Notes: a model not told the origin generated them from the sequence alone. DNA of 64,000 bases from Isurus oxyrinchus (GCA_026770705.1 JANJGN010000034.1:4464001-4528000); one strand, 5' to 3'. Counted from the stretch's first letter, positions 1,177 through 52,180 are shown. Program-made: numbers and translations.

Positions 1177-1203
1177 AACGAAATGATGCTGCAAGAGAAG
1201 AGG
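1177..1203 (+). CDS. 27-nt phase-1 micro-exon, type D (ERNDAAREE), of coiled-coil repeat gene
   Basis: atacag|aacgaaatgatgctgcaagagaagagg|gtaatc. The intronic 'ggttcaac' motif ~130 nt upstream is shared with the D copies at 7221, 16289 and 20469. Confidence 0.7.
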
Positions 1204-3515
1204 GTAATCGGAGGAGCAATTTTATGTTTATAAGGGCAATATAAATTTATTTTGCTGTACTTTTTTCGGAAAGCTATGAACCAGAAATTCCTTCTAGTGG
1301 AGGCTAATTGGTAGAATGGTTTGTTGTTTTTGCAGCTTTGATTCAGAAGTAAGAGCAACCACTCCTGAGGCAGATGTCCTTCGTTAAAATTGATACCATC
1401 AACTTCGGTTTATAATCCAACATGATAATCCAGTGAAATGTATGATTCGTTTCTGTACCATCTGAAAGAATATTTCTTACAGAATGCCTCTCTTTTTCTT
1501 TCAATTAGAGCGGGAAAACTTTAAAATATAAATAATAATATGTCTTTTGACGCAATATACGACGTACATGTACATGGTTTCCTTCCATGCCTTAATATAA
1601 AACTGCCTGAGGAAAGTAGGCATTTTGGCGCAAATTGATGAATCCCAGTTGTGACTGAATAACACATTCATGAAAAAAGTTGAAAAGGTCTAAGAACAAA
1701 TAGCAATTCTCGGAAATTGGAATAAAACCGACTTCACTTCAAACTGAACCTTAGCATGACTTGGTAGTTCTCCGCGGTGGGATGAAAACAGAATGGTGGG
1801 CGGTGGAACGGCAATTTCCTTTCCCACTTCGCCTCCCCGATCCAACTGCATCCTATTCTAAAACAGGACATTTAAGTCCTAGAATGTGGTAGCAAACCAT
1901 TCGGAAGACCTAAGTGTCCATTGTTATTCCTGCCAACTCCAGTCAGTGCACCTGTGTGCAGAAAATCACCCTCAGAATCTGAGAGTTTGTGTGCAATTGT
2001 AAACTTTAGCATGCTTGAAAAGTAGCAATTTCAAATCATTGAGATCATTTGTAATGCACCCTTGCAATGTTTACACCTTCTCGTTCGTGCAAGTTTAATC
2101 ATTCTACGGAATTCCCAGCAGCAGCTTCAGTGTAAAATATTGAGTCGGTTGTTTATCACTGAATTATTGGCTTCTTGTTCGAAACGCATTGTCACCTGAA
2201 TCAATGTCAAATAACAATTATATGATTGAGAAATGAAAGTCAATCATATGCTCACTGATCTTAAGATGTTTGGACCGTTATATTTTTGTCGACATTTTTG
2301 TGCCAATTGCACTAATAATGCTATGTCTTGTGTATTGAAATTACAGATACATTTTGTGTTGACCAATATTTGATGAGAACGACTAACTTGACACTTTCAT
2401 GATCTTAGCATTTTCCGAGCCAGTGAAGAAAACGCATGAGCCCAGTGGCGCATTGCCACTTTAGAAAATGGTAGCATGTCACATAACCACTCAAGCACGC
2501 CTGGGGCAACAAACAGAGTTTTAAAAGGGAGATTCAGGACGACTTTAGAGCTGTTTCCTGCTTACTTTAAATTTTCAGAACGGTGGGAGGAGCTTAGGAG
2601 GGGGTCAAACTGAGAGTTTCACCCTACCCAGACCTGGAGATTTAAAAAGGAGAGACGCAAAAAAACATTTGCGGTCCCATCTCCAAACCTGACGAATCTC
2701 ATTGTCTCCTTCTACATGCGTACAAAAGTCTGCCTGTAAGACCCTGGAATCTTCATTATGACCGTCTTGTGCTCACCATCAACTCTTGTTGCCATCTCCA
2801 CAGGCTGAAACACAAACACTCACCAGGTTTTGGACTCCGAAACTTGGATTCTGGGGGCTGCATGCAATTCCCGTCTTTGTCACCCCCAATTTTCCGCTGC
2901 TGTCACTAAAGAGTTGCCTCCAACTGATTGGCCGGCAGCACTCTGAGGTGCGACTTCATCCCCAGTCATGATCACAAGTCAAAACCTCAATTAAAGAACA
3001 CATTTCAGACCTTTGTCTTTCGACGGCATGAGGTCACCACTGACTTCAGCAGGCGGGGCGCCAAATACACCCGCTGTAAAATAGTGTCTCGTGCGTTTCA
3101 ATTCGACCGAGGATTTCTAAGTAGATCACACTGCAACTGCCTCCAGCACAGGAACACGACAAAATGTTGGCTCTCCTTCAATTCTGGCAACTTTTTTTTT
3201 TCTCACCAGTTTCAATCAATTGATATCTGCCGACATATTAGGCACCTGCTTGGACACTGAATTTTGGAGACCCTTTGGTTAACTTTCCTTTTTTCTCTCT
3301 CCATACCTCCCATGCAATGCGACTAATTTAAATCCCCTTATTTGAGGGAACATTATCCACATGATCCAACGTCCCTACGAGGCAAGATGCCACATTAAGT
3401 TGGGATGGAGTCGGGTCGTAGGATTGACTTTCGTTTACTGTAAGGAGCCATATTTAGGCAAGTTATCAGTGTTTTTAATGGACGTGTTCCTTGATTTGTT
3501 TTCTCATAATTTCAG

Positions 3516-3551
3516 AGCTCAACATATGTAAAACATCATTGAAAGTTTTAG
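3516..3551 (+). CDS. 36-nt phase-1 micro-exon, type A (ELNICKTSLKVL)
   Basis: ttctcataatttcag|agctcaacatatgtaaaacatcattgaaagttttag|gtgaga. Canonical splice sites, no stop, paralogous to exons at 11151, 17966, 35214 and 48076. Confidence 0.85.
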
Positions 3552-3992
3552 GTGAGAATGTTGACTATTTTCTTTTGAAATTGTCGCATGCTTATAAGGC
3601 AAGATTTGACGTTGCATTGAGTCGCAACACAGAACGTATCATATTACCCGCCAGCTTTAAACTCGGCAGACCTATCAGTTCTTTTGATTTCAACGCATAT
3701 AAATATAAATTGCAGTGTAGAACTGGCAGACCATATGCGAGAGAGGACTCACGACGGATATTTCACAAAATGGGATCACTGAGGCCTGAATTGCTGGGTG
3801 TGGGGTCTTGGGGCGAGCGGGAAGAGCTCCGAATTTTGTGTTAATTGGCGTGGAGGAAGATGGCGTTGTAGTTGGGGGGGGGGGGGGAGGGGGCGCAAAA
3901 GCAAGCAAAATAATAATTGCTCCTTTGGATGGCGTTTTGCAGGGCTCAGCTTTGCTGTTGAATTTCATCTGCATTAATATGCTGCATTACAG

Positions 3993-4019
3993 AAAAAAAG
4001 CTGAAAGACAAAGATGACG
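3993..4019 (+). CDS. 27-nt phase-1 micro-exon, type B (EKKLKDKDD)
   Basis: ttacag|aaaaaaagctgaaagacaaagatgacg|gtatct. Lies 441 nt after exon A, similar to the spacing in the other cassettes. Confidence 0.8.
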
Positions 4020-6147
4020 GTATCTGGTTTTGAAATTCAAGTGCTACGGATTCAATATGTCAGGAGTTAGCATCAAAATCCTGGAAGGCCGAGGTCAAAC
4101 GAACCAGTGTGCTCAAGGCAATAATTTTAATAACGCTCCAATCAAACTGATGCAGAAAACAATATTACAAGGCAAATCTGCACACAAACAGAACGGCCCT
4201 CAGCTGATTATAACTATTTGTTGTTGATCGCACTGATGATGTTTATAAATTTACTCAAAAAAAAATAGACACAGACATCATATTTGCAAAATTTTTCATC
4301 TGATGCCCCCTGGGCCAGCAAAACCTTTTCTCATCCCTCTGGTGATTCCCAATTGATAACTTCTTGAGGCAAATGATTCTTCTGAAAAAAAAAGTCTTAT
4401 TCATCTTTAGCACCAACAACACATCACTGTGCTCCACTTTCTACTTGCGAAAGATGGGCCAGTTTCTTTGTGTCTGGAATGGAAAAAACAATTTCATGGA
4501 ATGAAACTCCTCACTTACTACATAATTGATTTCAATTTTTTGAATGTTTGTGGTTGAATGGAATGCACTGAAAGAATAAATTATCGCAGTAAAGAGGCAC
4601 AGATAATTATGTTTCTGAAACGTTATCAGGGCAAACATATACAATCTTCTGGACTACAGATGCGTAACAAAACACACGTTAATATCGGTGCACACAAGTT
4701 GTTGCAACACAATTACATGAAGAGGAATATTATTGAAATTATTTCAGATGCTTTATCTGGACTATCCTTCCACATTGCAGAATTGGAGCAAGCCGAGTAT
4801 ACCTCAAATTTTTCACCTTAGCACTGGACGATTAGGATTGTGATGGAATTCCATTTCAGGAAAATTAATATTGAGGAATCTCAGATTATCAGTTGATTAT
4901 ATGACGATGTTAATCTCACACTGTGTAACATAGCCCATGCAAGTAGTCTGCGAGCAACATTGATTGAGCTGTTGTGAAATTTAGGGAAAATTCAATAATT
5001 CTCACTGATCATTGCTGAAACAATAGAAACAGATAAGGGCCGGTTACCACTTAAAACAGCCATCATAAGTGCAAATCATATGTTCAGGTTAATGGAGCAG
5101 AGGGCGTGCGGTAGAGATAGATGACAGATCATCTTCGAAAGGCACCTTTACCAATGATAAATGTTAGCCATCCCTGCATCATGAACAGTGGAGAAGACAA
5201 CGCCTCATGATTAGGTCAGAAGGAATAATAGCAGGATTAGGCCATTCAAACCAGGGATCTGTTTCCGATCTTCAACAAAATACTGGATGATCTGTTTAAA
5301 AGCATGGCATCACTTTCCTTCACTTCCACGTTATTTTTTGAAAGCATGGCATATTAAAGAGTGGGTATGAAGAGGCTTTGAACTTATTAAATAACAGCAT
5401 CTTTGCGCTTTTTGCAGGATATTTCCATCGACCTCTGAACATCTGGGGGATGACATACATCCTAATATCAGCATTACTTGTGAAAATAATTATCCATCTT
5501 ACTTGATAAACATCTCCCATGACCTCAGTTGGGGGGTCGACCTCTTAGAATCGTATGAAATATAATAAAGTCGCATTGCTGGAAAGAATGTGGTTTGTTA
5601 GGGATGAAACCTTAGAAATTTGTATATTTAAGTAGAGTCAAGTAAACAGGAATAATTATTTCTTTCATCAATAATAGATCATGTACAATATCTATTCTGT
5701 GGGGTTCTTCTGTTGAACTATCCAATTCAATGAAATATAGTAGCAAAGAACATAAGATATTCCTAGCGCTGTATATAAATATTATATGCCCTGAATGAAA
5801 ATGAGTGGAAAACATCGATATATTGTTAAAGCACCGTGGTTCTATTCAGGAAGATGGCGGTTTCCAAACAGGGCTCTTCGCTTCCAGCATTGCAACACTG
5901 ACGATTCCTGTAACTTTACTATTAGAGTGGAAAGAGCTTCTGGAGTCTGCGGGGAGAGAACATTGACACAGAAATGAAAGTGTTGGTTGAATTCTTTTCC
6001 ACACTTTTCAGTAGTGCGACAGAAGTGTGGGAAGTGATCTTCTAAATTGAAAGAGAGACGTTTTCTATGTTAAATGTGGAAAGCGTGAAGTAATTATTGA
6101 GAACTGAATTGGGATGAAGGTGCTGATTTTGATACTCTGTGACGCAG

Positions 6148-6183
6148 AACTCAAGGCGTGCAAGCAAGCTTTGAATGATCTGG
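6148..6183 (+). CDS. 36-nt phase-1 micro-exon, type C (ELKACKQALNDL)
   Basis: gacgcag|aactcaaggcgtgcaagcaagctttgaatgatctgg|gtaagt. Consensus donor; paralogous to 15207, 43536 and 51232. Confidence 0.85.
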
Positions 6184-7220
6184 GTAAGTTAGAAATGTCC
6201 AAGGATTTATTTGGCATACTCAATTGTTCTATAAGTGGATTACAGCTAAAGACTTGTTTCAAAGGTCAGGTATATTCAGACAAGAGTTACAGCACAGTTT
6301 CCTTAACATTTTGTTGCATGTATAGCCTCGAACACCCTATATGTACTTAGCATTAAATTATGTGTTCGCATGAGCTATTTTTAATATTCCATGGGCTGTG
6401 CGCTTCCCTGGCAAGATCAACTTTATTTTCCTCCTCACCCCAAAGCTGTCTTGGGAAAAAAAAATGTAACCTGTCAAAGTGTATGATAAAAAGGGCAAAC
6501 ATAAGTCGCCTAAGTAACTGGTGTCCTCGTCTAACCACGTGAAATAAGCACATGTGGTAATATGCAAACAGCAGAAAATGTAACTCTTCCAACTTTCACT
6601 GAAATTGTGGATGAACAAGGCTCAACTACACCTAATGGCTTGGTTAAATCAAACTTATCAAGTCATGGAACAAAAGGATTGGCAAAAAAAAATCGCTGCC
6701 TCGGTTTTGAAATAGTCCACTCATGCCGGGGATTAACAGAAGCTGTGAAGAACTATTCATGTTCCCGATACAACTACTGAGATATATTGCATTTTCTATC
6801 CAGAGTAAGCACTAAACACGTTCTGTACAACTAATTTGACTGAGCTCTTTCAGTGTCGAACACGAGTGGAAATATTTTATCTCTACAAAAAATATTTATT
6901 TGTCTTGATCACGCGAATTGTAACATCAGTTAACGTTCTCAATTCAAACGTGCTCATACTTCGTTTTGCTGGCGTTATTCACGTTGCATAATGTGAAGCT
7001 AAGTTTACTGAATCTGCATTTCCTCACTTCCAAGACATTTAAATACTTGATCAGCTGCTTTGCTCATAACAGACTGGAGAACACTATTTGCGGTTCAACC
7101 TATGCTTTGCCTAGCAAAAGGCTTCATTTGCAATATGTCAAGTTAAGCAAAGTGACTTACCCGTCCTAGGTCTTAACAATAATGCCTGTCACTTAATGAA
7201 CTTATCATGCTATTATGCAG

Positions 7221-7247
7221 AAGGAAGCAAGGGAGACAAACGGAATG
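7221..7247 (+). CDS. 27-nt phase-1 micro-exon, type D (EGSKGDKRN)
   Basis: tattatgcag|aaggaagcaagggagacaaacggaatg|gtaagt. Lies 1037 nt after exon C. Confidence 0.75.
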
Positions 7248-8004
7248 GTAAGTGAATGTGACATTATTTGTTTCCAACGACAATGGAGGTCTAGTATGCA
7301 CCATTTTACGCGAACATCTATACACGAGAAATCCCTGTTGTGCAAGGGTGTTAGTTAAAAGACTCCGCATATCTTTCTGCTTTTGCACGTATAATTCAGT
7401 TGCATGGACACGAACACCAGAGTCAGATGTTCTAACTTATGCATGAGCATCACAACGATTTGACATAAACAGTGATAACCCCATGCTCTACTGAGGCCCT
7501 GATGCCTTTCTGCTTTCTGCAACTGACGTATTATTTGCCGAATGTCTGTCATTTAAGTTTCAAATTGGGTGGATATCTTTCAAAATAAAAAAAATATTAA
7601 TTCCTTAGTTCTGATAATCCATGACCGGTTGTCTACTTAGCTTACTTTGGGTAATGTAAATCTTCACAAGGAAAGTTAGCCTTTCGATGACATTCAAAGT
7701 ATCCAGCGCTTGCTCGGCCCCAAAGGCCCACTTAACAATAAAAAATGACAAGCCTTGAACAATGATTTTACACAGCTCTCAAAGCGGCAAAAAAAGACTA
7801 GTGGGCCATGGACATGCGTTTACAGTGCCCTGTCGGCCAGTTTGAAGGGTGGAAAGTGGGGGAAACGTAAAGATTCGGAAATGCCCTTCTGAGCAACACC
7901 CTCCCTGCCCGACAGCACTCCAGTAATACTGTGCCGTGTACAGTTCCAAGACATCATACCAGCGATTGCTACTATTGACATAAATATTTACTATGCAATG
8001 TATT

Positions 8005-10480
8005 TATCAACGCTGGGGTTGAAGGGTCGGTTGATTGGCTGACTTTTTTTTCCCATCCCTAATTGAATTTGCGAAGTTGGTGGTGAGCTAAATACTTCAA
8101 CAGTCCACGTGGTACAGGCAAGAACAGTGTTCTTAGGGAGGTAGCTCCGTGATTTCGAAAGAGCAAAGAATTAGAAGCGATATATTTCCCGGTCAGGATG
8201 GTGAGTGGCTTAGTGGGGAATTTCTTGCTGATGCTATTCCTATCTGTTTGCTGGCCATGTCTTTTGAGATGCTAGTGACTGTAGATTGGAAGGTGCTGTC
8301 CAAGGAGAATTGATACTACTCTGCACTGCATCTTCTCGGTGGCATATTCTGCTGTTACTTTGCACCTGTGGTGGACGGAGTGAATATTAGCAGATGATGT
8401 GCCAGTCAAGCGAATTGCTTTGTCCTGGGTGGCTTCAAGCTTTTTGAGTGTTGTTGGAGCAGCACTCATCAAGGCATGTGGAGAGTACATCATCAAACTT
8501 CTGACTTTTAGCATATAGAATGTGGACAGATTTTGGCTAGACATAATGTGACTTACACCGCAAGGGAGCCTAGCTTCTGACCAGCTGCTGTAGCCACATT
8601 ATTTATACGGTTAATGCAGTTCAGTATCTGGACAATGGTAAGACCCAGGTTGTTCACATTGGGCGTTAAGCAATGGCTAAGCCATTAAACGCCAAAGGGA
8701 TGTAATTAATTTCTATCTTGATGAACATAGTCATTTCCAGGCAATTGTGTGGTGCAAATGTTCATCGTTGTTCGTCAAACCAAGCTCGTATAGTGCGAAT
8801 GTTTGCTGCTTTCGGACCTGGACTGTTTCAGCATCTGAGGAGTCGCAAATGGTGCAGAGCATTGTACAATTATTAGTGCACTTCCCCAGTCCTGACTTTA
8901 TGATGGATAGAAAGTAATTCCTGTAGAAGCTGAAGATTGTTGGGCAGAGGACACAGCACTGAAACTCCTGCAGTAATATACTGGGATTCAGTCGAATGAC
9001 TTCCAAGAACCACAACCAACATCATTTTTGCCAGGCATCACTCCAAATAGTCGGGCATTCCGCCACGCCCTCCGCCCCATGCCCCGGGCGTCCCATCCCA
9101 CCAACAAACCCCTCCCCGCCCCGATTCCTGTTGCCAGCATCTTTTCTGGGACACCTTTAGGCACATTGTGTCAAATGCTGCCTTGATGCCTAGGGCAGTC
9201 ACTCTTACCTCACCGCTGCGGTTTAGCTATGTTATCCATGTTTTAAATAAAGACTGTAGAGATGTTAGGAGATGAGTGACACTGTTGCCACACAAAGTGT
9301 GCATCAGTGAGCATGTTTCTGCTTATCAAGGACCCTTGATAGCACTGCTGATGATATCTTCCATCATTTTACCGATTTTTAGAAGTATACAGATTGTGCA
9401 GTAATTGGCCAGCTTGCACTTCTATGGTTTTTCATGCAGTGAAAAGACCAAAGTGACTTTCCACATTCCGGCTTAATGCCTGCCTTGTAGCTGTAGTGGA
9501 GCAGCTAAGTTAGTGGCAAGCAAGTTCCAAATTACAAGTCTTCACTCCGATTGCCGGATTGTTATCAGTACCCATTGTCTTTACAGTTTTCATTGTCTAC
9601 AGCCGTTTCTTGACATCACTTGAAGTGAATTGATCTGGCTCATCGCTACCATTTCTGCTACTGTGGGCCTCTGGAGGAGGCCAAAATGGATCACGCATTC
9701 TGCACTTCAGGCTGAAGATTTTGCCGACTGTTTCAGCCTTATCGTGTACACTGATGTGATGGTTTCTACCATCATGGGGCATGGGGATATCTGTGGAGCC
9801 GCAACATACCGTGTGTTTATGTCACTGTCGACCAGCATTCACAACCTAATATGGCAAGTTTGCTGAGCATTGATGTGATTGGTTGTTTGTGGAATCACTT
9901 AGCTCTTCCATTAACATGCTGCTCATGCAATTTGGTATGCAAGCAGTCCTGAGTTCTCGCTTTACCAAGTTGATACTTTTCTATTTTTTTTTTTGCCTTT
10001 TGATGCTCTTGTTATGCCGCGCTAGATTTCTCATTGAACCCAATTGGAACAATCACATTTTGGTAATGGTACTGTGGAATGACTGCCAGACTATGACGCA
10101 ACAGCTTACGATTATCTAAAATTCTGCTACTGCTGGTGGCCAACAGCTCCTTGTTCATTCACTAATCAACAGCAACTGAGCCAGCCTAGCAGCCAAACCT
10201 GTTCCAGCTCTCAGTCAGATCAGTAGGCGCTGGTGCGGCTGAGCCACTCTTGGTGGTGGATATTTTTGCACAACGCCACCCTGCCCCAAACAAGCACCAC
10301 AACTACCCAGAGTATATTCTAAACACCACTGCCCTCAGGGCTTCATCCAAATGGTGTTAAAGATGTTGGAATGATGATTAATCAACTGAAGACGGGGTGA
10401 GGTTGTGGTATCTAATAATCAGCCGGTGTTTACTTGCTCAACGTGTCATTAAGGATTTCTTAAGGGCTTTTAACTGTCTA
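8005..10480 (-). mobile_element. Decayed HER1-like LINE (RT region and 3' tail)
   Basis: Tail cccatccctaattgaa...ggtggtgagc at ~8050. Minus-strand ORF fragments KKLEATQDKAIRLTGT...IHSVHHRC and QCCVLCPTIFSFYRN resemble RT motifs (PQGSVLGPTIF). Many frameshifts. Confidence 0.75.
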
Positions 10481-11150
10481 GCTTCAATTTGCAGGATGCC
10501 GGGAAGAGTTTAGTGGTGGGAGGAAATCAAAAGCCTGTCCCTCCACAGGCCCGGTGGGTTAAAAGGCTGAAAATGTCTAATATTCTGCACCTCATTACCA
10601 CAATCGACATTGGATATGCCAAGCATCCTGAATGCCCTCACCAACCGCAACACCTCCCACAAACTGTAATCCACTATATGTGAATGTTCAGCCACTCAGA
10701 TACTGGACAGTCCTCTGTCCACCATTCATCCAGCTGCCAACCTCTGTGGTCTGAGTCGCACGAACTTACCTCATCCTGAGTTCTGAAACTTTACTTCTGG
10801 GGACTGTTTTCATTCCAATCATTGCCACCGCAGTTTTGCCATGGTTGTGACTGCAGATTTGCCACCAAAGTGAATGGTCCTGTGTTGACTGAGGCAGGAT
10901 TTCATACCGATAAAGGGTAGAAAGTTAAATCCCCAACAAATGATGCCCCTTGGAGACTGGAATGGCTCGAGGCAGCAAACATCAGCGAACCAGTTTGCCC
11001 GTGGATCATCACAATTCTTTTGTTCAAGTACTTTAGTTTCATTGAATGCAGTTTTCTGAAACATGTCTTCTGTTTAAGGCACCATGTATAGGCAACTTAA
11101 TATCTTTTGAAATGGCACTGATTAACGTTTTCTTACCTCCTTCATAGTAG

Positions 11151-11192
11151 CTTTCGAGCTCAACATATGTAAAGAAGCATTGAATAATTTAG
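11151..11192 (+). CDS. Type A micro-exon with shifted acceptor, 42 nt (AFELNICKEALNNL)
   Basis: The homologous acceptor tttcag|ag reads tttcgag here. An in-frame AG lies 6 nt upstream (catagtag|ctttcgagctcaacatatgt...ttag|gtgagg). Confidence 0.6.
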
Positions 11193-11645
11193 GTGAGGAA
11201 ATTGAGTTTTCCTTTGGAAGCTCTCCACAAATACAGAGTAAGACTGTTAGAAGTTATGGAAGCGCAGCGACAGCGATATCATATTGTGCATCAGTTACAA
11301 AATTCTCCCGATTTTCCATTCAACGAACTCGGATCTCTTTAAATATAAAGCAGTACATGGAAATGGCATACCGTACAACACATTCCTGCCTGCACCTTTG
11401 CCCTGGAATGTGTGCGTGTGCTTGTGGGTGTCTGCATTGGGTTGAGTAGTGGGGCACGGAATGTTTAATGTATTCATCTTTTATGTCGAAAATGTTCACA
11501 TCCCTATGACCTATATTGCAGGATACAAATGCTCAACATAATACAGCTGGTCTGTAGGATAGCATTTTTGGCGTTGAAGTTCGCTGTTGAATTTTATGGA
11601 AAATATTTTCATTGCAGAATAATACTTTACTTTTTTTATTTTCAG

Positions 11646-11672
11646 AAACAAAACTGAAAGCAAAAGATGACG
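11646..11672 (+). CDS. 27-nt phase-1 micro-exon, type B (ETKLKAKDD)
   Basis: ttttttattttcag|aaacaaaactgaaagcaaaagatgacg|gtactg; strong polypyrimidine tract. Confidence 0.85.
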
Positions 11673-13349
11673 GTACTGTCTTTCGCAATCAATAGTTAAA
11701 ACTGGATGAAGGATAGGCGTGGAAATTTGCCAGGATCATTTTTAGCAAGCATTTTATGTGCAATCTGTATATTAATCTTAAAAGAACACAGAGGGTAGGG
11801 GGAAGTTAAATGGCGAGTCATCTGTAACAGATCTCCATTTTGCCAATTATATATATTTTTTTAAAAAATAGCCGTATTTGCCAAATGAGCAATATAATAA
11901 AGACTTTGCTAGATCCTTAAATCATATGTAATAAGTTCAGGAGTGCGCCATTCAGCTCCAACGTTCAATAACACTATCCGTGTCCTATTTATTTGTTTAA
12001 CTCAATTTTTCTGCCATTGCCCCATAGCCCGTAATTCTTGGCACATCACACAATTTTTATTTACAGGCCTAGAGTTCACTATATAACACAGATTCCACAA
12101 ACATTTGTAGAATATGTCGACTGACGTGCACTTAATAAAAAATAAATACATAAATAGTTAAATGAGTAAATTTATACTAAGCTCTGTATTACTTCTGACA
12201 AATAAATCATTATGGATTCAAACACGATCTGTCTTGACATATGTGGACGGTGTGTGAAGTTCAGAAAACCAATGCCAATATATTCACGTTCTTGAAGAGA
12301 AAGTTGTGCATCAGGATTGAACGTTGAGAAAAATACAGTAATGAATTACTATACAGTTGGTAAGCAAGGAAAACTTGGATAATGAGGGGATGATCGCCAA
12401 ACAATTAAAGATAAGTTAGAGTTTCTGCAGATGTTAAATGCAAAAATGACTGAGATCAGACAATCAACGTTGGTACAGCAGGAATTATGCATGGGGAATT
12501 AATAATGAACTACAATGAAAAATTTGTATGAAATAAACAAGACTGGTGCATCAATTTGCACTATGTATGATAAAAGTAAAATTCCATAAATCGCTGTTAA
12601 TCAATCTAATCAAGGAATGGAGGAGCTGAACAAAATTTGAATTGCCAAGGAACTGGGGGCGCAAGATTTCATTATTTCTACAAATTTCATGTATGAATAG
12701 ACAAAATATATTTTTGATAAATTTACTCAAAATATAAAGGTATATATGAAAGTAAGATGCCATAGTGTCATAAGGGTGCTGCGAACAACTTGCTCCAAAA
12801 ATTGGGATATATCGATTTCGGATTATTATTGTGATCCCTTCTTCGTCTGGTCAGAATGGGAAGTGGTCGAGCATGCAGTTAATGTATTAGTTGAGCTCAC
12901 AACGATCAAATTGTGTTCCCAATCTTTTGGGGACAAAATTACATTTTGAGAGCCTCTCACTGGCGGTACATTGTAAGATTGTGTTAAACACAGTGAAACA
13001 CTTTATTTGGCAGGGTTCATAAGATGCATGTTTCGTTCAATATTCTCAGTCGAATTTCTACCTGCATGTTATGATGTTTAGGGGGAAGCTAACATTAACC
13101 CCCAATCACGGAGGGTGCAATAGAAACCGCTCAAATGCCAGTACATGCTGGGAATGGAAAAGAGCCATGACCACTTTTTTTTCTCCAGACAGCATTTGTG
13201 CAAGCCAAATTTGAGGTTAAAGGAACAGAGAGAGTGGGCGAGAAATATGTTACACATTGTCTTGGAAAAAAATATATTTGTCTCGATCAATCAGATCAGC
13301 TCCACGGTATCACTGCAAAATTACCTCAGATTGGTTTTCAAGGCCGAGC

Positions 13350-15206: not shown

Positions 15207-15242
15207 AACTCAAAGCATGCAAGAAATCTTCAAAAGATCGAG
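15207..15242 (+). CDS. 36-nt phase-1 micro-exon, type C (ELKACKKSSKDR)
   Basis: catgcag|aactcaaagcatgcaagaaatcttcaaaagatcgag|gtaagt. Confidence 0.85.
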
Positions 15243-16288: not shown

Positions 16289-16315
16289 ATGGAAATAATG
16301 AAGCAAAAGAGCAGG
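16289..16315 (+). CDS. 27-nt phase-1 micro-exon, type D (DGNNEAKEQ)
   Basis: catacag|atggaaataatgaagcaaaagagcagg|gtaaat. Lies 1046 nt after exon C. Confidence 0.7.
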
Positions 16316-17965: not shown

Positions 17966-18001
17966 AACTCGAAATATGCAAACGAGCTATGAAAGATTTA
18001 G
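17966..18001 (+). CDS. 36-nt phase-1 micro-exon, type A (ELEICKRAMKDL), weak donor
   Basis: aattttag|aactcgaaatatgcaaacgagctatgaaagatttag|gtgaca. Open frame, but the rest of this cassette is decayed. Confidence 0.6.
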
Positions 18002-18413: not shown

Positions 18414-18440
18414 AAATAAAGCTGGAAATGAAAAAACTGG
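18414..18440 (+). pseudogene. Decayed type B micro-exon (EIKLEMKKL), donor lost
   Basis: atcag|aaataaagctggaaatgaaaaaactgg followed by ttttgaaattc. The gacg|gtat donor of the paralogues is deleted, while the flanking intron matches 3940-4090. Confidence 0.7.
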
Positions 18441-19422: not shown

Positions 19423-19458
19423 AACTCCTTGGTTGCAGACAATCTATAAGAGACCCAG
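19423..19458 (+). pseudogene. Decayed type C micro-exon (ELLGCRQSIRDP), donor GT>AT
   Basis: cacag|aactccttggttgcagacaatctataagagacccag|atacgt. The downstream intron (~19800-19950) resembles ~6560-6700. Confidence 0.7.
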
Positions 19459-20468
19459 ATACGTCAGTGATTTATAACAGCTTATTCGTTATACTCAATT
19501 ATTCCAGATGAGAAAAAAAAGGCTAAAATTTCTTTTCAAAGCTCGACTGCATCAGCACGACAGTTACACTGGGTTTTTTTCTTATCTGCTGCTTGAAAGC
19601 CTAGTATGACTATCACTTATGAATTTGATGTCACGTCTTGTTGAGCTATTGGTTATCATTAAACTTCCACCGGACATGAGTATTGCTAGCGAATTCAACA
19701 TTTGTTGCCCACCCCACAGATGGCTTCTAAACAGAACATTTGTCACAGGGTATGAAAAAAGGCCAAATCCACAGCATTTTTCATATTTTAGATTTGTATA
19801 TTTTCTAGGTGAAACAGACAACGGAGGTGGTGCAACGTGCAGGGAATTCATCCTCACAACTTCCATTTAGAACGTGGATGATTTGCAGTCAACTGCAACT
19901 AACGCCTTAGTTGGCTCACTTATAAACTTGCCGAACATAAAAAGGACCGCCACGGATTGCAATACTGCACTGATCATATATTCTACATCCTATGTGAGGG
20001 AATATTCCATACGGCCCCTGCAGCTGCTGAGAAGTCCTATTTTTATACTCCACACACCACCACCCAACTTTCTCGGTATAACTAATTTCGTGCTCCTCTT
20101 TCATTCTCGGCCATCAGTGGAAATTATTCAAAGCTATCTAGCCAATCTATTAGCCTGAGGACCTGAATTGGATCGTCCATTATCATTCTGAATTCAAATG
20201 GATTCATGATTCGATTTCGAATTGATATTCCAATTTTAACGTAAGATACGCCATTGCATTATTGAACTGTTTTGCCTCTTTTACAAGTCCAGTATTTTCT
20301 TAATCTGTTGCAACGTCCATAAAAAGATGGGAAAACCTAAATAGGGTTCAACATGTGATTTGCCTAACTATATACTTTCTGGCGAGAAAAGCTCCACGTT
20401 ACACAAAAGATCTATATGTTCTACATCTGATCTGTGCCTGCATGAAGTATTTTAATACATTTATACAC

Positions 20469-21520: not shown

Positions 21521-21547
21521 AAGAAAAGCTGAAAACAAAAGATCGCA
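21521..21547 (+). pseudogene. Decayed type B micro-exon (EEKLKTKDR), both splice sites mutated
   Basis: atatac|aagaaaagctgaaaacaaaagatcgca|atattt; closely resembles the B copy at 35626. Confidence 0.6.
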
Positions 21548-22411: not shown

Positions 22412-22447
22412 AATCTGGAAAGTCGCTGATAGAACTGAAAGATGCAC
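22412..22447 (+). CDS. 36-nt phase-1 micro-exon, divergent type (ESGKSLIELKDA)
   Basis: tatttttgcag|aatctggaaagtcgctgatagaactgaaagatgcac|gtgaga. Same length and phase as A/C but not an obvious paralogue. Confidence 0.6.
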
Positions 22448-24173: not shown

Positions 24174-24200
24174 AGGCCAAGCTAAGCCATTGCCAGAAAG
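24174..24200 (+). CDS. 27-nt phase-1 micro-exon, divergent type (Q/E-AKLSHCQK)
   Basis: gccttatttcag|aggccaagctaagccattgccagaaag|gtaagc. Strong sites, and KL sits at the same position as in B exons. Confidence 0.75.
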
Positions 24201-29164: not shown

Positions 29165-29200
29165 AACAAGACGTTCTGAAGAAAACAATTAAATTTCAAG
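29165..29200 (+). CDS. 36-nt phase-1 micro-exon, divergent type (EQDVLKKTIKFQ)
   Basis: ttttttttcaattgtgccctgaag|aacaagacgttctgaagaaaacaattaaatttcaag|gtaagg. Confidence 0.7.
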
Positions 29201-32132: not shown

Positions 32133-32136
32133 CTCT

Positions 32137-32168
<32 letters not shown>

Positions 32169-32295
32169 TTCTTCATATTCTTTCCCCTTCATCTTCTTCA
32201 TCATCGTCATCTTCCTCTTCTTTTTCAAGGTTCCTCTTCTCCTTCTTCATCTTCTTCATCTTCTTCTTCTGTTTCCTCTTCTCCTTCTCCTCCTC
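32133..32295. repeat. (CTT)n-type polypyrimidine microsatellite
   Basis: ctcttcttcttcctcttcttcttcttc...; it explains the spurious poly-F/poly-S/poly-L ORFs. Confidence 0.9.
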
Positions 32296-32689
32296 TACCA
32301 CAAGGTATGAGCATTGTTGGCAATATCACCATTTATCGCTGAACCTAAATCTGCTTTGGAAGAAAGAATAGAAGGAGAAACAGGCTCTGACTAAAGGTCA
32401 ATAAATAATCCCCGATTAGAAAGAAACAAGTGTTTTGCCAAGATAAATGAAGCATAGCATAGTAATGTGAGAAGCGCTGTTTTTTACCCTCCTACTTTCA
32501 GCATGATCGTGCATAATCTTTTACTCAGCTTCATCTAATCCTTTGGTGAAACCAGACAATTAATATCAACATTATTTTTAAAAAGACAATAAATAAATAA
32601 ACTACGGTCTCTTTTCTCTTTCCATCTCAATGCATCGGTCTGTCTGCCTGTCCTCATGTTTTTTTTTTATTTCCCTCTTTATTACTGTA

Positions 32690-33120
32690 CCTATTTATCT
32701 GTCAATTAATTATTAACTTACTTATTTATCTACCAATCTACCTATCTAACTATCTTCCTATATAACTATCTATCGATTTGTCTGCCTCTCTTTGTATCCA
32801 GCNNNNNNNNNNNNNNNNNNNNNNNNNNNNNNNNNNNNNNNNNNNNNNNNNNNNNNNNNNNNNNNNNNNNNNNNNNNNNNNNNNNNNNNNNNNNNNNNNN
32901 NNNNNNNNNNNNNNNNNNNNNNNNNNNNNNNNNNNNNNNNNNNNNNNNNNNNNNNNNNNNNNNNNNNNNNNNNNNNNNNNNNNNNNNNNNNNNNNNNNNN
33001 NNNNNNNNNATGTCTGTCTATCTATGTAATAATCTATCTATCTATCTATCTATCTGTCAGTCTGTCTGTCTGTCTGTCTCTGTATACATATGTCTATCTA
33101 CCTGTCTATGTATCGATTTG
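32690..33120. repeat. (TATC)n/(TGTC)n simple repeats flanking a 207-N assembly gap (32803-33009)
   Basis: tatctaccaatctacctatct...NNN...tgtctgtctatctatgtaataatctatctatc. Confidence 0.9.
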
Positions 33121-33818: not shown

Positions 33819-33845
33819 AGAAACAAGTTAACTCAAAAGTGAAGG
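33819..33845 (+). CDS. 27-nt phase-1 micro-exon, D-like (EKQVNSKVK)
   Basis: ttttatgctacgttgcag|agaaacaagttaactcaaaagtgaagg|gtaattgatcgtgaaa. Its donor-side intron resembles the gtaattgatgatgaaa at 46928. Confidence 0.75.
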
Positions 33846-35213: not shown

Positions 35214-35249
35214 AGCTCGCCGTATGCCAAGAAGCTTTGGAAAATTTAG
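35214..35249 (+). CDS. 36-nt phase-1 micro-exon, type A (ELAVCQEALENL)
   Basis: ttcctcatttcag|agctcgccgtatgccaagaagctttggaaaatttag|gtaagg. Confidence 0.85.
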   Translation, partial: SSPYAKKLWKI

Positions 35250-35625: not shown

Positions 35626-35649
35626 AAAAGCTGAAAACAAAAGACGGCA
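35626..35649 (+). CDS. 24-nt phase-1 micro-exon, shortened type B (EKLKTKDG)
   Basis: cctttag|aaaagctgaaaacaaaagacggca|gtattt. In frame but one codon short, with a weak donor. Confidence 0.55.
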
Positions 35650-41200: not shown

Positions 41201-41339
41201 TATGCAACAACAAAACAGCGGACTTAGTACTGAACCTACCAGACACCCCACTAGAAACAGCATTCCAGTCACAAAATCATTCAGCAACAATATGGCGATG
41301 TTTCTTGAGACATTTTTGCACTCAACTTGTGAGGTTCCT

Positions 41340-43535: not shown

Positions 43536-43571
43536 AACTCAAGGCATGCAAAACATCTTTAACATATAAAA
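43536..43571 (+). CDS. 36-nt phase-1 micro-exon, type C ((E/K)LKACKTSLTYK)
   Basis: actgttctgcag|aactcaaggcatgcaaaacatctttaacatataaaa|gtaggt. Confidence 0.75.
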
Positions 43572-46330: not shown

Positions 46331-46900
46331 AAAGATCTGTACTCTGCTCTTCCAGCCCGCATTGATGACCTCACTATCTAATATTGACTGACAGGGAATG
46401 ATGGTCTACATTTTAAAATGTTGCATTGAATCCGAACCTCAACACTGCATTTCGGTGAGCAGCACAATTTCACTTTACACCTGGAGAGACACAGTTTTCT
46501 CGACAGCAGCCCTCCGTGCCAAATGCATGACACGTTTTCTCATTTTTTTCCGCGGCTTTGGTCATCAGTAGAAATGATTAATGTCTATCCATCCTACCGA
46601 ATATTTCATTCTTCTTGAACTGGATAAGTACCAACATACTTTTCTCAAGTGAAATCAAACATATTTTTTAAAATATTATTCATAATGTAATTATTAGCGC
46701 CTCAAAATAATTGTGGTGCATCTGCAGTGGGTTCCCTCGAAAGCAAGACAACCCTTAATCAGCTGCTTTGCCGATGGCGGAGAGCATGGATTTTGCAAAG
46801 GTATTTTTCATGTACAAAATAACTGAACGAAACTGAAAACGCATACGATGCTGTGCACTGTTTGCTCTGCGTATTAATTGTTTATCATGCACTTTAACAG

Positions 46901-46927
46901 AAGAAAAAATGAAAAATAAAGAGCAGG
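46901..46927 (+). CDS. 27-nt phase-1 micro-exon, type D ((E/K)EKMKNKEQ)
   Basis: cactttaacag|aagaaaaaatgaaaaataaagagcagg|gtaatt. Confidence 0.8.
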
Positions 46928-48075
46928 GTAATTGATGATGAAATCATTATATAACCATAATGTAAGCTAAATCGTTCGCGTTTGCTTTTTATTCGTTTGT
47001 TTGTTTTGCTTTCCACGTGTGTGAAACTTAAGTCGTTTTTTTTTACATTCCTGGAGGGGAGATTGGGTTGTGTTTGAATATTTTGCCAATCTTGATTAAG
47101 AAAAATGTGGGCTCCCACCTGCCTGGTTTATTACTGTCCTGAAGTTAGCTCACTTGTTCCGTTATCATAATATTCCAGCATAGTAGAGAATCTGTGATCT
47201 TTTGATGCATGCGCACTTTGAAGCAATTGATGCAGCATGATTGCTGAGCCAATTTGCGTTCCGAATTAGAAGTCACATTTCTGAGCAACTAGGATTTTGA
47301 GAGCGTGGGTTTTTTCAAGATTTCCAGTTCAACTTAATTATCCCAACTGTCATAATGTCTAGCCGACTAACTTCATAAATTTCTTTGAGTTATATTGACT
47401 TGTATTAGGGAAAATGCTACTTCATTCCAAACAATCCAAATCCAAGTTCTGCTGTCTTACTCTAATCCTTGAATATGTAAAGTGACACACTATTAGCTGA
47501 AATGTTATTTTCGTACCTTCTGAAAGGAGGATATAATCAACTTCATTTGGAACTGATCAAGCTTTCAAACTCTTCAGCCTGTCGGCCTTCTCCACAATTA
47601 AAAGCCACAAGGGCATGTTAGCCCCACGATATATTTGCACTTCTCCAATTCTGGCCAGCTGTGCATCACCGATTGTCAACAGTTGGGAGGTTTGGGCGTT
47701 TCTTTGAGCTGCTTGAAATCTTTTCAATGAAATATTGGCGTGAAGCTCACCCAACATGCTCACACATCCGCAGCTCGCCACCAAACCTCGTCCCCCATTC
47801 CCGCCACTCCCCACCATCACCTCCAGCCAACAAGCGACGCTAATTCACATTTTTCTGTCTCAAGCTATTGCACTCCTTAACATCTACGGCATTTAAGTGC
47901 ATATCCAAGCACCTCTTTTTGTCTCATCATCCCAATTATTGTGAATATTTTCTTTGAGTAATATTGACTGCAATGGAAGAAAATTTATAATGTAGTTGGA
48001 ATTCAACCGTTACATAAAGGCAAACTAATCTGGTTTCAAATGGTTGTGCTCACAAGTTCATTTTAATCCTCCCAG

Positions 48076-48111
48076 AGTTCTCAGCGTGCAAAGAAGCTTT
48101 GAAAACTTTAG
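48076..48111 (+). CDS. 36-nt phase-1 micro-exon, type A (EFSACKEALKTL)
   Basis: ttttaatcctcccag|agttctcagcgtgcaaagaagctttgaaaactttag|gtgagg. Confidence 0.85.
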
Positions 48112-48377
48112 GTGAGGAAAATTAAATCTTTATGAAAAGTCTCATGCCATTATAGGGCAAAAGTTTCACATGTGGCACAAAAGCAGCAATTTGATATTGC
48201 TTTGGCAGGTGGTAGTACAACAATAACACTTTTTCTTAGTTTCATTCATTCCTACGGATGCAAATAGAAATGAAATAATGAAAAGTTGCTCCGTACAATA
48301 TCATATATTTAGCACAATTGCTGGAGTGATATTTCTAGGGCCACAAAATTTTTGGGTTGATGTTAAATTGTGAGTCA

Positions 48378-48430
48378 TTATTATTACTGTTCTTAATAAT
48401 AATATAAGAACAATAGTATTAATAATATTG

Positions 48431-48466
<36 letters not shown>
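48378..48466. repeat. (AAT)n microsatellite
   Basis: ataataataataataataataataataataat. Confidence 0.9.
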
Positions 48467-48617
48467 CTCATCTGGATCCAGTGAAGTTCTATTGAGTTTA
48501 ACAGTTACCGCAAATTTGGCCCATATTAGCTAAGGGGCTGAAATAATCAGGAGTTACATTTCTGTTGGCTGTCATCTTTCCTCTTGAATCACAAAGGCAA
48601 TAAATTTTGCATTACAG

Positions 48618-48644
48618 AAAATGAGCTGAAAGCAAAGGAAAAAG
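48618..48644 (+). CDS. 27-nt phase-1 micro-exon, type B (ENELKAKEK)
   Basis: ttttgcattacag|aaaatgagctgaaagcaaaggaaaaag|gtacta. Confidence 0.85.
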
Positions 48645-49085
48645 GTACTAATTTTTGACATTCAACAATTGAATACAAAAGATGCTGATCGTCCTCTGGG
48701 GAATAAAAGCACGATGCCGTAATTCAAACTGTCCTGCTGCTCAGCTTACTTACTTTTCTTTAATAATATAATGCTACATATGCGATTTAGTGCAACAATA
48801 CATATTTTCGGGCAGGGATGGGGGAGTGCGCTGTTGATCTAGCTCCACTACTCCACAAGCCCTTCTTTTAGTCCAAACGTTTAACTGACTCAAAAATGGC
48901 GAAAACTGGTTGCTCCACTGCTGGAACACACAAAAAATAAGTTTTAATCAGGCGGATTTTGAATAAGCAGCAAACATATTGTTTATTATCAAAATAGCCT
49001 TGTCAAATGCAAAGGCAATGCTTATCAGCATCCAGTGTGGAACATGAAAGTAAAGTAATTATTCATTCCTGGTATCGTAACTCCC

Positions 49086-49106
49086 CCTCTCTCTCTTCCT
49101 CGCGCG

Positions 49107-49137
<31 letters not shown>

Positions 49138-49160
49138 ATACACACATGCTCGCACACACT
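49086..49160. repeat. (CT)n/(CA)n microsatellite
   Basis: ctctctctct...gcacacacacacacacacacacacaaacacacatacacac. Confidence 0.9.
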
Positions 49161-51231
49161 CATTAAGCAAGAGAAATCAAACAGGCATCGATGAAATCGC
49201 CCAAAGATTAAAAGTCATTGGTAGGAAGGCAAAGGATAGATGGTGGAGCTGTTTAAATGACGTCCGGGTTTTCCGCTTGGTTGACATTGCTAATCCATGA
49301 AAAAGTCAATGAGTCTGGTGCTGCTTTCCAGGCGAACTCATAGAAAACTCGAGGGTACTCCATTCCAGCATGTTAAGTACCTCAGGAGCAGCGTAAATTC
49401 GCTTCCGATTTGGACTGCTTCTTGGGTGCTGGAGACTGCTATATTCCTTCGGGAGCAGTTTGGCGTTCCCTTCTCAAAGCAATGCCAAAAGCAACATCTA
49501 AAAGTCAGTCTTCCAGTTATGTTTTTCTCCCTTTTCCTTCAAGCCACAAAACGTGCAGTGCAAGCCGGTCAAGACGTTGATTTTTTTTTTCAGCTGCTTA
49601 ATTACTCTATCTTTGGCGCGTTTTTTTTTCATGCGTAACAATCAGAGATCAGCATTGACAATTTAAATAAGCTTTGAGAGCCCTAAGCCGTTGAAGACGA
49701 ATTAATTTTTATTAAAGTGTCCATGGCACATATAAAATGTAAATGTATTCTCCAGTGATATGACATTCAGCTGGTGATTGTGACTTTGTCGGTGATAGTA
49801 GTGATATATAGATGTTGGTAATTATTAAAACTGAGCTATTTCCGTTCTAAGGTATGTGATTTTGGATCATATTTTTCAAGTATGCCGGTTAACATCTTTA
49901 CTCATTTATGTACTTCAAAGAGAAGCAAAATGTTCATCTTGCAAAAGGCAAAGATCTCCATTTCCCTGCAGAGTAAATGAAAAATTGTTGCTTCATAACA
50001 CTTTTAACAGGCCACACAGGTGTCTTTCCATTTGTCATCAACAGAAATGGGGAATCGTGAAAATAATTACCCATTTAAAAAGTTTTAATTCGATTAATAT
50101 CCATCATTGAATTGTGTGACGTATGGGAAAGGACCACACTAACATAAAGAAGCCTTGAATTTACTTAGTGTTATAGAATAATTTGAAAGCAAAATGACTT
50201 TCTGTGGTGACTTATTAAACTATATTCCAAGTCAGGCAACACTGATGTGCATGAGAGCCATGTACATTTATTTGCGTTCACATGACTGCGTACAAATGAA
50301 GGGATCTTCCTACAAGAACTCGGCAAAGTCAAAAAAGCCACCAATGACTCTGGATAGCTCACAATGAATAGGCCAAAGTTTGGAAATTCTCCATGGGTAG
50401 GAGATTCGAAATGAGGTGTGCAATGCTGACCGCAGTTTATAAGGTGGTGATAACTCAACTTAACAATTTTTATGTTCATAAGAGATCAGTTTCCTCGAAG
50501 CCCTGAGACAAACGCTTTTTATTTCCTAAAGTTCAGATACAAGTTAACATTCCTGTCAGCTCCCAATCGTTTCCACAGATAAGAGGGATGTCAAAGGCCC
50601 TGGGTCGACATGGACAATTTGAAGGTTCATGTTTAGAAACCACTATAGGATCAGCTGAATTACTGACATTATTAAATTGAAGAAGCTGCAGTGGTCGAAA
50701 CAGTTCATCACTGAGGGAACTTTTGCTTTCGTCTCCAGCAGTGACAGATGTCAAAGGTATATATCTGCTGTGAAGTTAACAAAGAGAAATTAAGACATTG
50801 CGAAAAACAATTCAGATATCTGCTGATGGAACAACAACGGTTCATGTAATGGAACAGGCCCCATTGCATATCGGGGAATTATACTGGAGACGCTCTCTCA
50901 ACCAACCTCGGTTAAAGTCATAACTGTGCAGCTCAATTAGTTATTCATTATCAACTCATTTTCGGTGCAGAATGTGCGAACTTGTTTTCCAGCATTGAAT
51001 CACGGATAGATTCTCAAACATAGTTATTTTGTTGCAAAGAAAACAACAATGCTTTTGGACATTTGTGTTTGGAGAAAGCCCGTATGGATGTGGAACATAC
51101 ACTCTTATGTAATGCTGCCCATTTGGCGTAAAAGAAAAGATACGTTTTTACAAAATGTGCAATGGGTGAAGTGAGAAGGTCATTTCCTATTCCTAGGGAA
51201 TATATGCAATGTTTCATTACAGCTAATGCAG

Positions 51232-51267
51232 AACTTAAAGCATGCAAAGAATCTTTCAAGGACCTGT
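51232..51267 (+). CDS. Type C micro-exon (ELKACKESFKDL) with damaged donor; pseudo-exon or terminal exon
   Basis: aatgcag|aacttaaagcatgcaaagaatctttcaaggacctgt|gcaaga. The GT donor is replaced by GC and the last exon base G by T. Confidence 0.5.
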
Positions 51268-52153
51268 GCAAGAATAGTTTACTGCCTGAGCAAAACTCTA
51301 AAAAGTTTATTCCCTCAATATGATTAGCGTAAAATACCATGCCAGAAATAGTATGCAAGGAAAAAGGAAAAAGGCAACATAACGTTTTCCTGCCGTTGGC
51401 GGCAGAAATAGCGTGAGATATTTATTATATGCTTTGGAATTTACTTCCCTGGATTAGCCTAAACTAATTTAAACCCTCATTGTTGAAGTCGAATTTATGA
51501 AAATATGGGGATGAGGCAACTTAGCTCCAGTGTATTTCATGTAGATTGTGGATGATCCTAACTGAGTTCCTCCAATCCGGCAGGGTAACTACCATTTTAA
51601 TAAATTTGAACAGCAACATAACGTACACGGTTTCGGAAAGCTTCATTGACGCACAACCTCAGCGGTGCATGTCGGTCAGTGTTAAACATCCCCTCGCACC
51701 TCGTTCGCAATGATTTAGTTGTATCATGACCTGACACTTTATGTACAATTTTAATTTGCCTCCTTTGTTTTTTTTTACTTTAATTTCTCCATTGGTGGAA
51801 ATGTTAACTCTATATCTAACCGGTCAAATAACTCAATTGCCTCGAATATGTCAATTTGATAAACATTTGAATTTCCACTTGCAAGTCAATTCAAACATCT
51901 TCTGGAAAATGGTACTCATAATGTAATTTTCAAAGTTTCCATCTATATGTGTTGAACCTCACTGTGATCGTTAAGGCCACTATTTCATTGGTCAGGTGAC
52001 GTGCCCAGAAGCAGAAGCAACAATGCAATCATGCCTCAGCTTTATTTTAATGCATACTTGTGGTATGTAAAAAAAAAATCAATAATCTCAAAAGGCAGTG
52101 CCACTTCTATTATATTATCTCTGTACTCTAATTGTTTTAATCCATTTCAACAG

Positions 52154-52180
52154 AAGGAAAAATAAAAACAATTGAAAATG
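52154..52180 (+). CDS. 27-nt type D micro-exon (EGKIKTIEN), weak donor
   Basis: catttcaacag|aaggaaaaataaaaacaattgaaaatg|gtcatc. Lies 886 nt after exon C. Confidence 0.55.

Follow-up and report, generated by a model that had tools for sequence, protein, structure and literature searches.

A predicted shark gene of about 240 heptad-coding micro-exons that ends in a B30.2 exon

The genome of the shark Isurus oxyrinchus (4.98 Gb) contains a long array of very short exon-like segments that encode coiled-coil heptads and are followed by an exon for a B30.2 domain. The stretch analysed here, which we call the window, comprises 64,000 nt of contig C34 (G000:C34:4464001-4528000; JANJGN010000034.1) and lies in its entirety (1-64000, + strand) inside one predicted gene, both ends of which are situated beyond it. 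That a real gene of this architecture exists is, in our judgement, very probable. We propose more specifically that some 240 exons encode a heptad rod with C-terminal B30.2 heads, and that this product is exported by means of an N-terminal signal sequence; taken as a whole, this statement seems to us about evenly poised. The predicted product would have ~2,500 residues, with a heptad rod of up to ~2,300 residues and terminal binding heads. Positions are given relative to the window unless marked C34, with a minus sign for distances upstream of the window and a plus sign for those counted from its start.

Micro-exons in the window

An earlier note on this DNA, made from the sequence alone, had described about 20 short segments on the + strand that read as one peptide when joined. 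All 21 of the peptides it had joined map to stop-free, phase-1/1 segments bounded by AG and by GT or GC (Table 1). The sizes it had reported, 36 and 27 nt, hold for 10 and 9 of these segments, respectively, the two others measuring 45 (or 42) and 24 nt; a 22nd segment, of 27 nt, is found at 52154-52180, where the original finding ends. Profiles trained on 75 and 87 exons located in neither the window nor its nearest duplicate clearly set the segments apart. With the 36-nt type, 10 of 380 candidates scored 21.5-50.7, the next one 10.0 and the best of 372 reverse-strand candidates 12.4. With the 27-nt type, 10 of 403 scored 20.4-44.0, followed by 12.2, and the best of 381 reverse-strand candidates reached 11.4. 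When splice-site scores were used by themselves and lengths of 15-69 were allowed, 27 or 36 nt turned up in 14 of the 20 strong forward pairs of the window and in none of the six reverse ones.

One 36-nt and one 27-nt exon together would encode three heptads. The register that the earlier note had assigned to this unit is borne out by hydrophobic fractions of 0.89, 0.87, 0.70, 0.44 and 0.84 at unit positions 2, 5, 9, 12 and 16, and position 19 is mostly Lys. A Cys occupies d in nine of the 11 exons of the 36-nt type. The alternation of the two sizes proved strong, but it is not strict. The segment 51232-51267 is present as claimed, but its donor is GC and its last base is T, which creates a stop codon when it is joined to 52154; this exon is likely skipped or dead. 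Decayed copies at 18414 (with end and donor deleted) and at 19423 were absent from the earlier list.

Table 1. Micro-exons and decayed copies in the window, with scores from held-out profiles where available
Feature	Position	Strand	Remarks
27-nt phase-1/1 micro-exon	1177..1203	+	held-out score 20.4
36-nt micro-exon, Cys at unit position 5	3516..3551	+	40.9; duplicate 26.6 kb upstream
27-nt micro-exon	3993..4019	+	held-out 35.2
36-nt micro-exon	6148..6183	+	held-out 32.6
27-nt micro-exon	7221..7247	+	held-out 23.9
36-nt-type exon, usual acceptor lost	11148..11192	+	upstream acceptors yield in-frame exons of 45 or 42 nt
27-nt micro-exon	11646..11672	+	held-out 39.3
36-nt micro-exon	15207..15242	+	held-out 39.1
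27-nt micro-exon	16289..16315	+	held-out 27.5
36-nt micro-exon	17966..18001	+	held-out 39.9
Decayed 27-nt-type exon, 26 nt, end and donor deleted	18414..18439	+	
Probable decayed 36-nt-type exon (weak)	19423..19462	+	score 11.1
Divergent 36-nt micro-exon	22412..22447	+	held-out 21.5
27-nt micro-exon	24174..24200	+	held-out 28.4
36-nt micro-exon	29165..29200	+	held-out 23.4
27-nt micro-exon	33819..33845	+	held-out 33.4
36-nt micro-exon	35214..35249	+	held-out 50.7
24-nt in-frame variant of 27-nt type	35626..35649	+	targeted look only, outside the 238 calls
36-nt micro-exon	43536..43571	+	held-out 29.8
27-nt micro-exon	46901..46927	+	held-out 44.0
36-nt micro-exon	48076..48111	+	held-out 44.9
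27-nt micro-exon	48618..48644	+	held-out 40.4
36-nt-type exon, GC donor, stop at next junction	51232..51267	+	likely skipped or dead
27-nt micro-exon	52154..52180	+	held-out 33.3

An 810-kb array that ends in a B30.2 exon

The window and its adjoining stretches, a continuous 944 kb (C34 3.944-4.888 Mb), were scanned with profiles from whose training stop-bearing matches had been excluded. The calling threshold was set just over the top score reached by 13,555 reverse-strand candidates; at this setting, weak exons will be missed and a small number of calls may be spurious. The scan yielded 238 predicted phase-1 exons between -454 kb and +350 kb, in an array that spans ~810 kb and of which the window holds ~9%, or 22 of the ~240 predicted micro-exons. 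All but four calls are 27 nt (105), 36 nt (92) or 21 nt (37) long, the remaining lengths of 15, 18, 24 and 45 nt occurring once each, and the median intron measures 1.9 kb. This size distribution also emerged from a scan of the array in which length was left free, where 179 of 195 strong forward matches, versus none of six reverse ones, measured 21, 27 or 36 nt. Exons of 36 and 27 nt alternate in 163 of 196 steps, compared with a mean of 98 and a maximum of 124 in 2,000 shuffles. Thirty-five of the 21-nt exons, each a single heptad, cluster between roughly -400 kb and -272 kb; they are of two kinds, which resemble either the first 21 nt of the 36-nt type or the last 21 nt of the 27-nt type and which profile scores separate weakly.

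Where does the array end? The last 27-nt exon (C34:4814251-4814277; +350251) is directly followed by a terminal open B30.2 exon at C34:4816507-4817027, which is 352 kb downstream of the window start, and a rod-free gap lies beyond. The terminal exon matches the Pfam SPRY family (E 3.4e-14). Its fold, modelled from a 12-sequence alignment, is predicted with fair confidence to be all-beta (predicted local distance difference test score, pLDDT, 82; predicted template-modelling score, pTM, 0.82). The best fold matches of this model are the B30.2 domains of TRIM7 (template-modelling score 0.75) and BTN3A1 (about 0.75), and in a sequence-profile comparison BTN3A1 is the best match among solved structures (E 3e-34). 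The hidden gene of symmetric, heptad-coding micro-exons that the earlier note had proposed is supported. We rejected the possibility that the 810 kb hold two genes: no second head exon was found, and no second B30.2 exon of the family type was present among the 150 scored of 299 candidates.

The array has grown by tandem duplication, in units of 26.6 kb and 7.4 kb. The larger duplication, with ~15% intron divergence, involves window 1177-6183 and -36.8 kb to -20.6 kb. The smaller one, at +162.7 to +176.1 kb, shows ~1% divergence or less and could be an assembly artefact. From +65 to +160 kb the array is at its densest and displays a higher-order repeat of four exons, within which Cys-bearing and Cys-free 36-nt exons mostly alternate. 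Microsatellites and G-rich tracts occupy window 32134-33114, 48394-48465 and 56435-57607, and a run of 207 N bases lies at 32803-33009.

Coding signs and decay

When the two stop-bearing and four junction-stop exons are set aside, the other 232 join without a stop into 2,283 residues that include six Pro. Hydrophobicity in this joined product is periodic, with a peak at 3.5 residues (power 90, versus 13-23 in five shuffles), and across the array d is a Cys in 35 of 91 36-nt exons. In each of the three exon types, variation is greatest at third codon positions. The other two frames contain stops in 166 and 97 of the 238 exons, a contrast that is partly built in because training left out stop-bearing matches.

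Duplicated copies provide a further indication of constraint. In the 26.6-kb duplication that overlaps the window start, exon is more conserved than flanking intron in eight of eight independent pairs (mean divergence 0.089 vs 0.149). Over 36 overlapping duplicated pairs, which are not independent, divergence is 0.163 in exons and 0.211 in flanking introns (Wilcoxon p 0.002). Splicing signals could contribute to this difference. The ratio of nonsynonymous to synonymous divergence (dN/dS) is 0.40-0.52 for nearest-neighbour exon pairs, a biased set. A search with window 3300-12000 brought up no RNA data set, but five small sequencing runs from the same species, their type being a guess. Four of these, compared with a 10-kb segment that includes the last micro-exon and the B30.2 exon, matched short repeat-like stretches only, with neither coverage nor junctions at exons, and are uninformative either way.

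The head exon and the search for further domains

At its upstream end the array starts with a 111-nt phase-1/1 head exon (C34:4005537-4005647), 458 kb upstream of the window. A homologous 111-nt exon (70% identity, E 1e-8) heads the next paralogue at C34:4859457-4859567, and the first rod exons of the two genes mirror each other. The first nine codons of the head exon are hydrophobic and form the part that is best conserved between the paralogues; the hydrophobic run comprises ~9 residues, one of them Glu. Searches with the head exon returned at most its two copies. A run of apparent 33-nt hydrophobic exons was put down to Val residues encoded by the donor and discounted as an artefact. At C34 3.9757 Mb lies a conserved patch with several similar copies in its vicinity, which share no evident reading frame.

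Of the flanking exons that the earlier note had considered (IgV, IgC, transmembrane, B30.2, RING or lectin), the B30.2 exon was thus located, but no Ig or RING exon was. No Pfam match of any kind, and thus none to Ig, RING or B-box, was obtained for the 72 + strand open reading frames (ORFs) of at least 80 aa that were scanned, of 87 listed, in C34 3.949-4.044 Mb, a set that leaves out the ORFs of the two end stretches and may miss those cut by borders. Ig, RING and B-box were equally absent from 115 ORFs of at least 70 aa around the head of the next paralogue. IgV was not found in the ORFs around either head, a result confined to these regions since no genome-wide V-set search was made. None of the 37 genome matches to the butyrophilin-type IgC domain (C2-set_3; 110 candidates scored) falls within C34 2.7-7.5 Mb or C21 89-91.4 Mb, the latter on a second contig that carries paralogues.

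Paralogues and relatives in cartilaginous fishes

Among the 150 candidates that were scored, out of 299 in the genome, seven B30.2 exons of this type stand clearly ahead of all other matches. Five of them are on C34 and two on C21, and all have retained an intact frame. The 27-nt exon pattern produced 56 matches genome-wide, as against 21 for a control pattern; 40 of these are on C34 at 2.89-7.48 Mb and seven on C21 at 90.2-91.3 Mb. Each of these 47 shares the strand of a family B30.2 exon, one of six, and is located on its upstream side. Identical 27-nt pattern matches at C87:943685 and C219:407737 represent either unplaced family members or chance.

The five members on C34 form a cluster at 2.71-7.50 Mb, in which three are encoded by the + strand and two by the - strand; near 3.95-4.0 Mb the gene of the window meets a - strand paralogue head-to-head. 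Very similar B30.2 exons are found at 6.40 and 7.50 Mb, and the gene ending at 6.40 Mb spans ~1.5 Mb if no exon has been missed. On C21, the two members (89.7 and 91.3 Mb) are located within a very large B30.2 cluster (82-118 Mb). This cluster accounts for the bulk of the 150 SPRY matches that were scored, and it includes butyrophilin-like genes with Ig domains at 95-113 Mb.

Every one of the closest named proteins belongs to a cartilaginous fish; the sources are two catsharks, a skate, an electric ray, the basking shark and the elephant shark. The domain of the basking shark is very closely resembled by that of one C21 paralogue. The related gene models are GCB73088, XP_055510696, XP_038668997, XP_038672308, XP_038671249, XP_069775384, XP_042191566 and XP_078422387; RefSeq models among them are predictions. 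GCB73088 (60% identical) and XP_078422387 comprise little beyond the B30.2 exon. Scans of the eight proteins revealed coiled coil plus SPRY, at most a weak PRY and no other domain. RefSeq lists relatives as 'TRIM39-like', 'TRIM69-like', 'TRIM58' or 'A33-like', names that appear to derive from the B30.2 domain alone. In a quick tree of 69 domains (midpoint root, without bootstrap, members picked by similarity), 16 family members group together as a single, long-branched clade (Shimodaira-Hasegawa-like approximate likelihood ratio test, SH-aLRT, 100). This clade unites the seven paralogous exons with shark, skate, ray and chimaera models, apart from 53 other domains that include 22 from TRIM proteins, nine from Ig-bearing proteins and 12 others from the same genome. 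An 'A33-like' protein of shark skin mucus (PMC10707392) has a different accession, A0A401NX33, and was not counted as a family member.

Signs of the rod are seen in the relatives as well. RefSeq isoforms from catshark, ray and chimaera differ by blocks of nine residues. The skate model XP_055510696 contains abutting blocks of 9, 12 and 9 residues, which best match exons +291178, +336207 and +297861, and its top four matches all lie in the last 65 kb of the array. A stop-bearing exon at +337745, which directly follows +336207 and by eye seems to copy the +297861 type, was outside this comparison. The skate protein begins with a signal-like hydrophobic run; its single-sequence fold is poor (pLDDT 45) and places helices over most of residues 3-105. 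Using the single domain to look for longer related proteins brought up none at E 1e-20 from 440 candidates, and a profile search found seven, one of them in the family. Atlas clusters of SPRY proteins of 1,277-1,802 residues, automatically named, resemble the catshark relative (0.93, 0.91, 0.76); as a lead, they hint that long models of the family may already be present in databases. Outside the clade, models P0072 and P0086 (bowfin, gars) and P0143 (sterlet) combine hydrophobic segments, coiled coil and B30.2, with no Ig or RING seen, and possibly represent a parallel architecture in early-branching ray-finned fishes.

Discussion

How might such a product work? We envision that two or three chains would zip up in parallel, with a taken by Leu and d by Leu, Cys or Lys, and that the Cys residues at d would cross-link the chains in an oxidising compartment. 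Given the rise of 0.15 nm per residue in a coiled coil, the rod could extend up to ~340 nm and provide a long spacer for clustered B30.2 domains, turning the oligomer into a multivalent binder or cross-linker of a putative ligand, with a role that, considering the family, would most plausibly lie in defence. Because all exons are phase 1/1 and nearly all are multiples of seven codons, singly or in pairs, their duplication, skipping or loss keeps the frame. Such frame-neutral exons would make the length of the rod tunable and dead exons tolerable, provided that the exons are indeed spliced into one mRNA. In its most extended form, our proposal is that a cartilaginous-fish family predating the shark-chimaera split has used the cytoplasmic half of a butyrophilin-type gene, in megabase genes with exon counts among the highest of vertebrates, to build secreted, disulfide-cross-linked and B30.2-tipped ropes hundreds of nanometres long, which would be multivalent binders outside the cell and whose length changes by the adding and skipping of exons. 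This extended version we put forward tentatively, as a possibility rather than an expectation.

Several observations weigh against an exported rod of full length. The first coding exon was not identified, candidates with an ATG, a hydrophobic stretch and a donor occurring at a background rate of 3-13 per 40 kb of ordinary intron. Five of the six rod-bearing relatives (P0010, P0161, P0166, P0158 and P0154) start without a signal-like run, although these models may be 5'-incomplete. The B30.2 domain itself contains no Cys. The named relatives are short (175-945 aa). Of the matches of the skate protein, only the best one beats all 20 shuffles, and those of the catshark protein P0010 do not beat them. 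Decayed copies exist. In-frame stops occur in two of the 238 exons, +122107 and +337745, the latter of which by eye resembles a block of the skate protein, and four further exons end in T and thereby create junction stops. The low stop count is itself partly circular, stop-bearing matches having been excluded from training. Finally, dN/dS is 0.84 across the 36 duplicated pairs, and the constraint on the rod sequence is therefore weak.

What else could explain these findings? Chance or a repeat artefact was rejected. An origin of the segments as non-coding remnants, left by tandem duplication or by a mobile element, is scarcely credible: the array does expand by such duplication, but the specificity for strand, length, phase and frame, the codon-position signal, the link to B30.2 and the cross-species matches all contradict this notion. 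Alternatively, the full-length rod may seldom or never be made, and the array may be a reservoir of alternative or decaying exons that gives rise to short isoforms, or an emerging pseudogene. The stops, the dead donors and a dN/dS near 0.8 in recent duplicates would be explained in this way, as would the shortness and the many isoforms of the RefSeq relatives. The tails of chicken B-G proteins are likewise often truncated by intron read-through (PMC5938342). Nevertheless, merely six of 238 calls are broken, exons are better conserved than introns, the B30.2 frame is intact in seven paralogues and the long Atlas clusters, a lead only, resemble the catshark relative. We regard it as improbable that the full-length rod is seldom or never made.

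If the rod is made, where would it reside? The same gene could encode a cytosolic protein, a heptad rod with B30.2 reminiscent of guinea-pig enterophilin or of the chicken B-G 'zipper protein', that would act as a scaffold for cytoskeleton or trafficking or as a RING-less TRIM-like sensor. The B30.2 domain of butyrophilins is described as intracellular (PMC12841164), TRIM proteins as acting within cells (PMC8813856) and a soluble B-G tail as displacing tropomyosin (PMC5938342). The joined product contains only six N-glycosylation sequons in its 2,283 residues, and the starts of most rod-bearing relatives point in the same direction. A cytosolic location would, however, leave unaccounted for the hydrophobic head-exon start conserved in two paralogues, the signal-like start of the closest rod-bearing relative and the regular Cys at d, and we deem it fairly unlikely, though deserving of attention. 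Membrane anchoring appears quite improbable to us. It would imply that a transmembrane helix begins in an exon yet to be found and finishes with the hydrophobic stretch, either ahead of a cytoplasmic tail of the B-G or butyrophilin kind or in a type II protein with an extracellular rod. A series of heptad exons, a 27-nt exon and a B30.2 exon does correspond to the architecture of a butyrophilin tail (the order of domains being given in PMC8813856), and the gar and bowfin models, albeit outside the clade, possess a hydrophobic segment along with coiled coil and B30.2. Yet a run of about nine residues with a Glu is short for such a helix, no Ig exon was found upstream in either paralogue, and the cluster contains no match to butyrophilin-type IgC among those scored. 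Of the three options, export seems the likelier; two hints point to it, the hydrophobic and conserved beginning of the head exon and the signal-like run that opens the skate protein.

If expressed as modelled, a single gene would have ~240 coding exons, a count in the range of those of titin and nebulin. Five such genes fill ~4.8 Mb of one contig; the related models in public databases consist of lone B30.2 exons or short 'TRIM-like' proteins. The gene, with its B30.2 exon and heptad micro-exons, is extreme in scale, and databases carry its family under automatic, misleading names. If our proposal is true, the family would constitute an unstudied B30.2 clade, so far seen only in cartilaginous fishes and possibly extracellular, and would bear on the origin of the butyrophilin, B-G and TRIM architectures in jawed vertebrates. 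The recognition of exons of 21-36 nt where many follow one another, and the birth and death of exons in a rod of tunable length, could also be tested on this natural example. We found no description of this family in the literature searched, in which subscription journals are largely uncovered, and supplements of genome papers could mention it.

Among known systems, the earlier note had named the stalk of CD23 and triadin as parallels. Neither is supported, the terminal domain being B30.2, and both a CD23 or C-type lectin stalk (no genome-wide lectin search was made) and triadin were rejected on this ground. The parallel that it had drawn with butyrophilins and avian B-G proteins fares better, as the array ends in a 27-nt exon followed by a B30.2 exon and contains single-heptad 21-nt exons further upstream. 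Because no Ig, RING or B-box exon was found in the regions scanned, the gene is neither a butyrophilin nor a TRIM gene: a canonical butyrophilin or B-G gene was rejected for want of an Ig exon there, and a canonical TRIM gene because RING and B-box are missing from the head-region ORFs and the eight related proteins.

In chicken B-G genes, the coiled coil is encoded by ~27-37 split-codon exons of 21 nt per gene (a few of 18 or 24), in variable number (PMC5938342), and the genes form a tandem cluster that expands and contracts (PMC8813856). The shark gene similarly assembles a coiled coil from strings of tiny split-codon exons, 35 of 21 nt among them. B-G proteins, however, have an IgV domain, a transmembrane helix and no B30.2, whereas the shark gene has a B30.2 exon and no Ig exon that we could find, and its exons are mostly 36 plus 27 nt, ~240 of them over ~810 kb. 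Butyrophilins such as BTN3A1 share the order of a heptad region followed by B30.2, as in their inner half (PMC8813856 and PMC12841164). Unlike in butyrophilins, no IgV or IgC was found, the heptads number in the hundreds instead of forming a short region, and the B30.2 domain belongs to a clade separate from the IgC-linked B30.2 domains of the same genome. With TRIM7, TRIM21 and TRIM39 the product would have in common a coiled coil and a C-terminal PRY-SPRY, whereas RING, B-box and the TRIM coiled-coil family find no match in the head regions or in the eight relatives. Enterophilins are listed in PMC13749957. They are mammalian and cytosolic and consist of ~30 heptads and a B30.2 domain, with neither Ig nor RING; the shark rod would be about ten times longer. 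Compared by description only, the heptad rod and terminal B30.2 of enterophilins constitute the domain plan that comes nearest to the one proposed here.

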